Position numbers and translations under genes: made by a program. This document shows positions 1-698 of a stretch of DNA of 698 nt, piece by piece. Position 1 is the first letter of the stretch. Each line of letters starts with the position of its first letter. The notes beneath the pieces are model-generated. The model had not been told where the DNA came from, did no database searches, and worked only from the letters and a program-made list of their open reading frames with translations. The stretch comes from Escherichia coli (lineage in GTDB: Bacteria; Pseudomonadota; Gammaproteobacteria; Enterobacterales; Enterobacteriaceae), in the NCBI RefSeq assembly GCF_003334785.1, contig NZ_QOWV01000075.1; one strand, given 5' to 3'.

Positions 1-1
1 T

Positions 2-667
2 CACCCGGAGCAACACCTCCGCCCCTTCCGGGGTATCCTGCAGGCGGATGCGTTCACAGGTTACGACAGGTTGTTCAGTGCAGAACGTGAAGGTGGTGCA
101 CTGACAGAAGTTGCGTGCTGGGCCCATGCCCGGCGAAAAATCCACGATGTATACATCAGCAGCAAAAGTGCGACGGCAGAAGAAGCCCTGAAGCGAATCA
201 GTGAACTGTACGCCATCGAGGATGAAATACGGGGATTACCGGAGTCAGAGCGTCTTGCCGTCAGGCAGCAGCGAAGCAAAGTGTTACTGACGTCGCTGCA
301 TGAATGGATGGTGGAGAAGAATGGTACGCTGTCGAAAAAATCCAGACTGGGCGAAGCGTTCAGCTATGTACTGAATCAGTGGGATGCCCTCTGTTATTAC
401 AGTGATGACGGTCTGGCGGAGGCGGATAATAATGCTGCGGAAAGAGCGCTTCGTGCAGTCTGTCTCGGAAAGAAAAACTTTATGTTCTTTGGCAGCGATC
501 ACGGCGGCGAGCGTGGAGCACTGTTGTACGGGCTGATCGGCACCTGCCGTCTGAACGGTATCGATCCGGAAGCGTATCTGCGCCATATCCTGAGCGTACT
601 GCCGGAATGGCCTTCCAACCGAGTTGATGAACTCCTGCCATGGAACGTAGTACTCACCAATAAATAA
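2..667 (+). CDS. IS66-family transposase (TnpC/Orf3-like), C-terminal ~221 aa; 5'-partial, true start lies upstream of the window
   Basis: The frame of nt 2 has no stop from 2 to 664 and ends at TAA 665-667. Translating 2-70 gives HPEQHLRPFRGILQADAFTGYDR, which runs straight into the track ORF 71..667. Recognised IS66 transposase motifs are GILQADAFTGYD, ACWAHARRK (nt 113-139), DNNAAERALR and the C-terminal tail GIDPEAYLRHILSVLPEWP...LLPWN. The track's start at 71 is a TTG inside the longer open frame, with no convincing Shine-Dalgarno at the right spacing, so it is not the real start. Confidence 0.9.
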   Translation, partial: HPEQHLRPFRGILQADAFTGYDRLFSAEREGGALTEVACWAHARRKIHDVYISSKSATAEEALKRISELYAIEDEIRGLPESERLAVRQQRSKVLLTSLHEWMVEKNGTLSKKSRLGEAFSYVLNQWDALCYYSDDGLAEADNNAAERALRAVCLGKKNFMFFGSDHGGERGALLYGLIGTCRLNGIDPEAYLRHILSVLPEWPSNRVDELLPWNVVLTNK

Positions 668-696
668 GCGTCAATACGGTGCTCCGTTGACGCTTA
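665..696. repeat. Perfect 10-bp inverted repeat (potential stem-loop) spanning the transposase stop codon and the IS terminus
   Basis: TAAGCGTCAA at 665-674 is the exact reverse complement of TTGACGCTTA at 687-696, separated by a 12-nt spacer (TACGGTGCTCCG) that contains a nested 3-bp CGG/CCG mini-palindrome. No U-tract follows (the window ends ...CC), so it is not a canonical intrinsic terminator. Confidence 0.8.
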
Positions 697-697
697 C
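668..697. repeat. Putative right terminal inverted repeat (IRR) of the IS66-family element
   Basis: Read from the right end inward, the reverse complement of 668-697 is GTAAGCGTCAACGGAGCACCGTATTGACGC, starting with the GTAAGCG/GTAA signature I recall for IS66-family termini. It sits immediately downstream of the transposase stop, which is the usual position. The exact extent is uncertain without the left end. Confidence 0.55.
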
Positions 698-698
698 C

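Follow-up and report, generated by a model that had tools for sequence, protein, structure and literature searches.

Analyzing the window, by which we mean the whole 698-nt stretch of Escherichia coli DNA presented above, we found that positions 2 to 697 of its plus strand are the 3' 696 bp of ISEc23, an insertion sequence (IS) of the IS66 family that is truncated here on its 5' side. Thousands of ISEc23 copies match over 2-697, and TnpC residues 314-537 lie on the window at 99% identity by tblastn (locus L001, positions 2993-3664, i.e., the window through 664). The open reading frame stops at 667, a protein identical to its product carries Pfam domains PF03050, PF13817, PF13005, and PF13007, and RefSeq names this product an ISEc23 family transposase. 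The matching locus is on an E. coli ETEC virulence plasmid bearing eatA and fimbrial genes (NZ_AP022179.1), where the annotation gives an ISEc23 transposase pseudogene without an N terminus. The window copy is a partial ISEc23 lacking an intact 5' side.

Gene order and target duplication were judged on intact copies, the window itself holding only the 3' part of tnpC and the right inverted repeat (IRR). Intact ISEc23 copies (L005, L006, and L007) are 2,532 bp long with the gene order tnpA-tnpB-tnpC; they end in GTAAGCG...CGCTTAC and are flanked by 8-bp target duplications (CATCTTGA, CATGAATG, and CAATATTC), as are IS66 relatives (CTACCTAT, GAACGAGA, TTATAAGC, and CCTTTTCC). From the ends and duplications of the intact copies, the IS ends at window position 697, and 698 is flank. 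ISEc23 has all four features of the IS66 family, namely, the TnpC type, the tnpA-tnpB-tnpC order, GTAAGCG inverted repeats (IRs), and the 8-bp duplication, and its ends resemble those of ISEc8, IS679, and IS66 in sequence, duplication length, accompanying gene order, and bipartite IR. The first flank base is C in 7 of 14 tabulated copies, so that the apparent preference for C extends to half of them only. What follows directly on the window ISEc23 is part of an ISEc8-like tnpC, covering residues about 377-534 at 63% identity, and it has a right end of its own near L001 position 4242; the segment L001 2993-4242 is a pile of IS66 debris on the ETEC plasmid, between the fimbrial genes and eatA.

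Features of the ISEc23 right end in the window (plus strand unless stated)
Feature	Positions	Strand	Basis
tnpC 3' part, DDE transposase residues about 314-537 including stop	1..667	+	ORF, tblastn, Pfam
tnpC stop TAA, the first three bases of the stem	665..667	+	sequence, ORF
Inboard (5') arm of outer stem, within the right-end-specific block TA[A/G]CCGTCAATACGG of relatives	665..673	+	repeat, fold, alignment
Inner stem 5' half ACGG, also in the inner IR box ATACGG (674-679)	676..679	+	fold, IRL/IRR comparison
Tetraloop TGCT	680..683	+	fold
Inner stem 3' half CCGT; C685 and G686 derived, two pairs gained	684..687	+	fold, alignment
Outboard (3') arm of outer stem, the IS tip; G689 derived, one pair gained	688..696	+	fold, alignment
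IRR common to both ends, 20/24 positions identical to the left repeat (IRL) GTAAGCGTAAACTGACCGCCGTAT	674..697	+	IRL/IRR comparison
Family-wide tip ACGCTTAC-3' (GTAAGCGT from outside)	690..697	+	conserved at either end of every relative examined
U-rich tail UUUAUUGGU directly 3' of the minus-strand hairpin	656..664	-	sequence, fold
-35-like TTGACG facing outward, 5 nt from the IS end	687..692	+	sequence
First base of the flank, an ISEc8-like tnpC fragment	698..698		annotation, tblastn

Anatomy of the right end

The IRs of IS66 elements are bipartite, with the tip followed by an inner CCGT(A/C)T box 19-24 nt from either end, and the two ISEc23 ends have in common the tip, at positions 1-8, and the inner box GCCGTAT, at positions 18-24. 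By analogy with DDE transposons in general, the tip is presumed to be the end that is cleaved and joined in strand transfer. Matches to the tip motif elsewhere in the element are at chance level (7, versus 4.8 expected). Just inside the shared 24 bp sits the inboard arm, in a block that is conserved at right ends only and opens with the tnpC stop. Within the tnpC coding region there is another, less perfect inverted repeat of 19 nt (343-361/444-462, 84% complementary).

The arms TAAGCGTCAA (665-674) and TTGACGCTTA (687-696) are 100% complementary and 12 nt apart. A perfect 10-bp inverted repeat with a loop of 3-40 nt arose somewhere in the window in 42 of 3,000 dinucleotide-preserving shuffles (1.4%), and the same perfect repeat at the 3' terminus arose in none of the 3,000. 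Folded as sense RNA, positions 655-698 reach -17 kcal/mol (z = -6.3), with none of 200 shuffles equally stable; the minus-strand RNA hairpin reaches -18 kcal/mol (z = -4.5), and the DNA fold is -12.7 kcal/mol on either strand. The minimum-energy structure consists of an outer stem of 9 bp (665-673/688-696), a bulge at 674-675, and an inner stem of 4 bp (676-679/684-687) closed by a loop at 680-683, with A664 and C697 unpaired in ISEc23. The center of the inner stem is shifted by 1 nt from that of the outer stem, in addition to the 2-nt bulge.

A sequence-only reading of this stretch had already recognized the perfect 10-bp repeat at 665-674/687-696, placed one arm on the transposase stop (TAA at 665-667 indeed opens the inner arm), and assigned the element to the IS66 family, which the TnpC match and the IS66 ends confirm. 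Its view that the terminus is internally palindromic as DNA agrees with the predicted DNA fold on both strands. It was right that the other arm is the IS tip and took 696 rather than 697 as the outermost base, and the RNA hairpin that it predicted is as stable as the fold of 655-698 that it had called for suggests, with a further 4-bp inner stem that it overlooked. Also overlooked were the terminator-like layout of the antisense strand and the derived, invariant, one-clade status of the hairpin.

Distribution and origin of the stem-loop

We compared 24 distinct right-end 33-mers, which in ISEc23 span window 665-697, drawn from Enterobacterales genomes, plasmids, ISEc8, ISKpn24, ISEc22, ISCro1, and a Thauera element. 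Among these right ends GTCAATACGG and CGCTTAC are at least 90% invariant, indicating that each arm is conserved in its own right. Pairing at 10/10 positions is found only in the ISEc23 type and at 4-8 of 10 in the remaining right ends, pairs 4-29 and 8-25 are formed in only 3 of the 24 sequences, and none of the 24 shows a compensatory (two-sided) pair change. In the covariation test on the same set, paired cells amount to 73.3% versus 73.4% in shuffles. Nearly all relatives fold no better than shuffles, with the terminal pairing unused in most minimum-energy structures, and the palindromic right end is absent from ISEc8, ISEc22, ISKpn24, ISKox1-like elements, ISCro1, and the Thauera element. 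Since pairing elsewhere is limited to 4-8 positions and no compensatory changes occur, the hairpin is not a trait of the IS66 family at large. The sequence-only reading had proposed that it might belong to the transposase-binding architecture of the IRR and had pointed to the left end and to other IS66 members for comparison; the left end has no such inboard arm (fold z = -0.2), and with the pairing unconserved among the members, a family-wide part in transposase binding or end architecture appears unlikely. We also rejected a conserved structured RNA of the IS66 family, as covariation equals the shuffle mean with no two-sided changes, and an Rfam search of the window returned nothing relevant. 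For the Enterobacter asburiae element, the candidate ends match at 14/24 IR positions and have no target duplication.

In relatives, the right end alone bears the strictly conserved mini-palindrome CCGT-CAAT-ACGG (columns 4-15 of the 33-mer, equal to window 668-679), and in most of them this is the pairing that the minimum-energy fold uses. ISEc23 lost the CCGT half (now GCGT) as the larger stem arose.

The perfect 33-mer defines one clade in a neighbor-joining tree of the adjacent 600 nt of tnpC, and by RefSeq naming this clade includes ISEc23, ISEc47, ISEc43, and IS682. Unlike other IS66 IRs, the right IR of this clade is self-complementary with the 9 bases inboard of it. With sister and outgroup elements pairing at 4-8 of 10 positions and folding otherwise, the hairpin is a derived state of the ISEc23/ISEc47/ISEc43/IS682 clade. 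The adjacent tnpC of clade members has diverged by up to about 15% (about 84.5% identical), with the 33-mer identical. The 33-mer is at least 99% identical in 1,708 of 1,711 plasmid records and 5,582 of 5,584 E. coli records that contain it and is invariant in at least 99.8% of records, and it is found in 4,309 of 5,426 complete E. coli genomes. Loss of the repeat from closely related copies, which the sequence-only reading had named as evidence against its proposal, was not what we saw.

Going from an ancestral-like consensus to ISEc23 takes five substitutions (C4G, C16T, A21C, C22G, and A25G), of which four create pairs and one lies in the loop, no pair being broken. When five substitutions were drawn at random, 13 pairs were reached in 3 of 200,000 trials, a test that is post hoc in that the structure was picked for its perfection in this sequence. 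Moreover, the sister clade shows free variation at spacer positions 16-22, which, like the loop, are invariant in the ISEc23 clade. We propose that in the common ancestor of the clade four substitutions would have turned a 9-pair quasi-palindrome into a 13-pair stem-loop that has been invariant since, and that selection rather than mutational bias was probably behind it. The invariance could also reflect ordinary IR constraint, or recent spread with recombination among copies. Within the clade, ISEc43-type elements end in ...GGG TAA and have a stem of 11 outer pairs (-23.4 kcal/mol). Stem decay is seen in two sequences, L010 and L040, although three of the four secondary changes in L010 would be tolerable in the sense RNA (two in the loop and one G-U wobble). 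A single template switch (quasipalindrome correction) was considered as the origin of the stem and is unlikely, because both arms carry changes and there is a 2-nt offset between the halves.

Possible roles of the folded end

Searches of the accessible literature on the IS66 family (circular intermediates included), ISEc23, and IS679 turned up no description of the right-end palindrome or of a mechanism at this level. The ISEc23 hairpin is a further example of a known phenomenon, secondary structure at an IS border, and not a major surprise. Nevertheless, few ISs of E. coli are commoner than ISEc23 and its close relatives, virulence and resistance plasmids often carry the 33-mer, and the mechanism of IS66 transposition is poorly understood; a clade-specific, invariant stem-loop at the right end offers a cheap experimental handle. 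It marks where to seek transcript 3' ends, protection from outside transcription, and unequal treatment of the two ends.

We tentatively favor the reading that the stem-loop is a clade-specific and probably selected folded single strand, which would insulate the right border of ISEc23 from the DNA of its landing site. Its outer arm is the IS66 tip that transposase must recognize and cut, and its inner arm is part of the right-end-only block. On the sense strand, the structure would serve as a portable 3' stem-loop of the tnpABC message, to which read-through transcripts would be trimmed by 3'-to-5' exonucleases and at which they would then be protected in the manner of REP hairpins. On the antisense strand, the hairpin followed by UUUAUU would stop transcription arriving from the flank. 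The anatomy, the one-clade restriction, the directional substitutions, and the invariance are what we observe; that the active molecule is RNA and not DNA, and that it has both of these activities, is what we infer.

The offset of the inner stem, the bulge, and the pair-creating changes in the spacer favor a folded strand over a symmetric protein site. In the sense direction, the hairpin is followed by C and then the flank with no U-run, and it does not qualify as an intrinsic terminator; the attenuation of read-through out of the element that had been suggested from the sequence is not borne out. With no U-tract on this strand, the sense role would be to block the decay of read-through tnpABC transcripts from the 3' end and not to end transcription. 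In the antisense direction, the hairpin leads directly into UUUAUUGG, which derives from the Asn-Lys-stop codons. A consensus scan for promoters and terminators, run over the right end and flank of an intact copy, called nothing on either strand, and the antisense hairpin with its tail goes uncalled because of the bulge and the 12-nt outer loop.

Several points speak against this reading of an insulating folded strand. The hairpin of ISEc43-type elements, which end in ...GGG TAA, lacks the antisense U-tract, so the terminator part fails for the clade as a whole, and since the tnpC stop lies within the stem, terminating ribosomes would melt the hairpin. The missing sense-strand U-tract, the terminator scan that called nothing, the lack of compensatory double changes, the post hoc nature of the substitution test, the other possible grounds for the invariance, and the stem decay in L010 and L040 also weigh against it.

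Known systems resemble this end in part. REP-type and other 3' stem-loops that shield mRNA from 3'-to-5' exonucleases are likewise stable (the ISEc23 hairpin at -17 kcal/mol), immediately 3' of the last ORF, and without a U-tract; unlike them, the ISEc23 hairpin overlaps the stop codon and the transposon tip and is present in a single copy, and the functional likeness is predicted only. Intrinsic terminators at IS borders, which block transcription from outside, have a likeness in the ISEc23 minus strand, where UUUAUU comes directly after a hairpin at the edge of the element, but the ISEc23 stem has an A-U-rich base and an internal bulge, is uncalled by the scan, and has no terminator counterpart on the sense strand. 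Subterminal repeats of the Mu or Tn7 type comprise several copies of an end motif at both ends, whereas ISEc23 has one extra copy at the right end only. The hairpin ends of IS200/IS605 elements go with an HUH transposase, no IRs, and no target duplication, whereas ISEc23 has a DDE transposase, IRs, and 8-bp duplications.

It is also conceivable, though in our judgment improbable, that the stem has no function of its own. Two separately constrained arms, complementary at 8/10 positions by chance, would have been completed into a stem by chance or by a template switch, and the stem would have hitchhiked with a successful IS lineage. The conservation of the arms across the family whether paired or not, the rarity of pairs 4-29 and 8-25, the shuffle-level pairing, and the absence of compensatory changes are what such a by-product would leave, and hairpin-less relatives are active elements with target duplications, while L010 and L040 lost pairs with no obvious penalty. 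Set against this are the four of five lineage substitutions that created pairs, a rare outcome in the random trials, their occurrence on both arms with a 3' half that does not simply repeat the 5' half (2-nt offset), and the invariance of a loop and spacer that vary in the sister clade. If no functional reading holds, what is left is a well-documented palindrome that was perfected within a transposon end.

Body-less stubs and a possible inward-facing second tip

An exact 34-mer, GTAAGCGTCAA-TACGGTGCTCCG-TTGACGCTTAC, occurs without any IS body in 40 plasmid records and on many E. coli plasmids. These stubs (L002 2366-2399, L014 66-99, L015 1501-1534, and L070 401-434) are equivalent to window 664-697 except that G replaces A664, and they consist of two IS66 tips and a 12-nt spacer. 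In IncI-type plasmids the stub lies between traC and pilI, taking the place of about 265 bp still present in related plasmids and truncating pilI; further stubs are found in an IncF backbone, beside ISEc8 on pVir68-like plasmids, and by a partition locus. An ordinary truncation, in L003, differs from the stubs in keeping 20 nt of tnpC.

The stubs bear on another reading, in which the inboard arm is a second, inward-facing tip, either an extra site for transposase or TnpA (a regulator or decoy) or a cuttable pseudo-left-end, and the stubs are its footprints. We consider this likewise improbable, although several observations fit it. The inboard arm is identical to the IRL tip at 9/10 positions and in the IRL orientation, and in ISEc43 it is a perfect 11-bp GTAAGCGTCAA. 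The 34-mer occurs in at least four unrelated contexts with a common left boundary, no target duplications, and no significant upstream tnpC homology; if the inboard arm were used as an end, a common breakpoint at the edge of the palindrome would be expected. The replacement of ancestral sequence in IncI plasmids is what an end-mediated adjacent deletion would do, and single-stranded DNA hairpins are predicted on both strands. However, the element has no further copies of the tip motif, the arm is missing from the left end, the ISEc23 pseudo-tip opens with A rather than G, and the target duplications of relatives indicate that these transpose with no palindrome. A duplicated binding site would also leave the inner-stem substitutions unexplained. 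The stubs themselves lie within IS-riddled mosaics, where several events are likely, and were picked by requiring G; a metagenome census allowing any preceding base gave only three matches, too few for statistics, two of which were intact ISEc43-like elements.

The stubs resemble the remnants of nearly precise Tn10 excision and MITE-like IS derivatives in being palindromic, with two tips and almost nothing between them; unlike these, they lack a target duplication and stand at deletion or rearrangement junctions. A simple excision remnant or a MITE was rejected as their origin, since the 8-bp duplication is found in none of the four contexts. We likewise rejected the idea that the flanks of the pVir68 and L014 stubs are diverged tnpC 3' ends, as their alignment to four reference 3' ends scores at or near the 95th shuffle percentile and well below the shuffle maxima.

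In its strongest form, the two-tip reading holds that transposase would act on the 34-bp two-tip unit as such, deleting the IS body with adjacent DNA and leaving the palindromic stubs behind, and this we regard as quite improbable. If the stubs do reflect the inboard arm used as an end, some deletion junctions of IncI and IncF plasmids would be explained, and a two-faced end, if true, would equip the element with an inherent means of deleting itself and rearranging plasmids and would provide the first mechanistic handle on end recognition in the IS66 family.

Outward-facing -35 elements at IS ends are well known in other families. That the palindrome is incidental here to an outward -35, created by derived G689 and serving a hybrid promoter with a -10 in the flank or a circle-junction promoter, is very improbable: TTGACG does match TTGACA at 5/6 positions, where relatives have TTAACG, TTTACG, or TGATCG, but the scan of an intact copy with its flank found no complete promoter, a -35 accounts for only one of the four pair-creating substitutions, and a circular intermediate for IS66 is not established in the searchable literature. 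A circle junction with a spacer of about 5 nt would put TTGACG 17 nt from TAAACT of the left IR.

In addition to the stubs, we observed other IS66 ends in close company. In two independent cases a right end abuts the tnpC 3' end of another IS66 element, at points that lie within 1 nt of each other, TTAC|CATGGAACG and TTAC|CCATGGAACG (L015 1535-1600 and L059 about 3334-3394, equivalent to window 638-646, CCATGGAAC), and on pVir68 an ISEc8 is inserted in the hairpin loop of a resident right end (…TCAATACGG|GTAAGCGTACAG…). Nesting of IS66 elements in one another's 3' ends seems to occur. Two plasmids of E. coli KMi006 carry ISEc23 right-end remnants (L003 3501-3553, 53 nt, and L076 431-470) that adjoin the same molybdopterin-oxidoreductase gene, and on one of these plasmids the remnant is next to an intact ISEc22. 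In Serratia symbiotica (L049 1601-4123), two right-end-type termini face each other about 2.5 kb apart and are identical at 40/40 positions (the IRL is the reverse complement of the IRR), which would be an element with two right ends or two head-to-head copies. Finally, on the chromosome of E. coli G5, a tip of the ISKpn24/ISEc22 type, TAAGCGTGCA (L005 537-546), lies about 220 bp outside the left end of ISEc23 and may be the leftover of another IS66 element.
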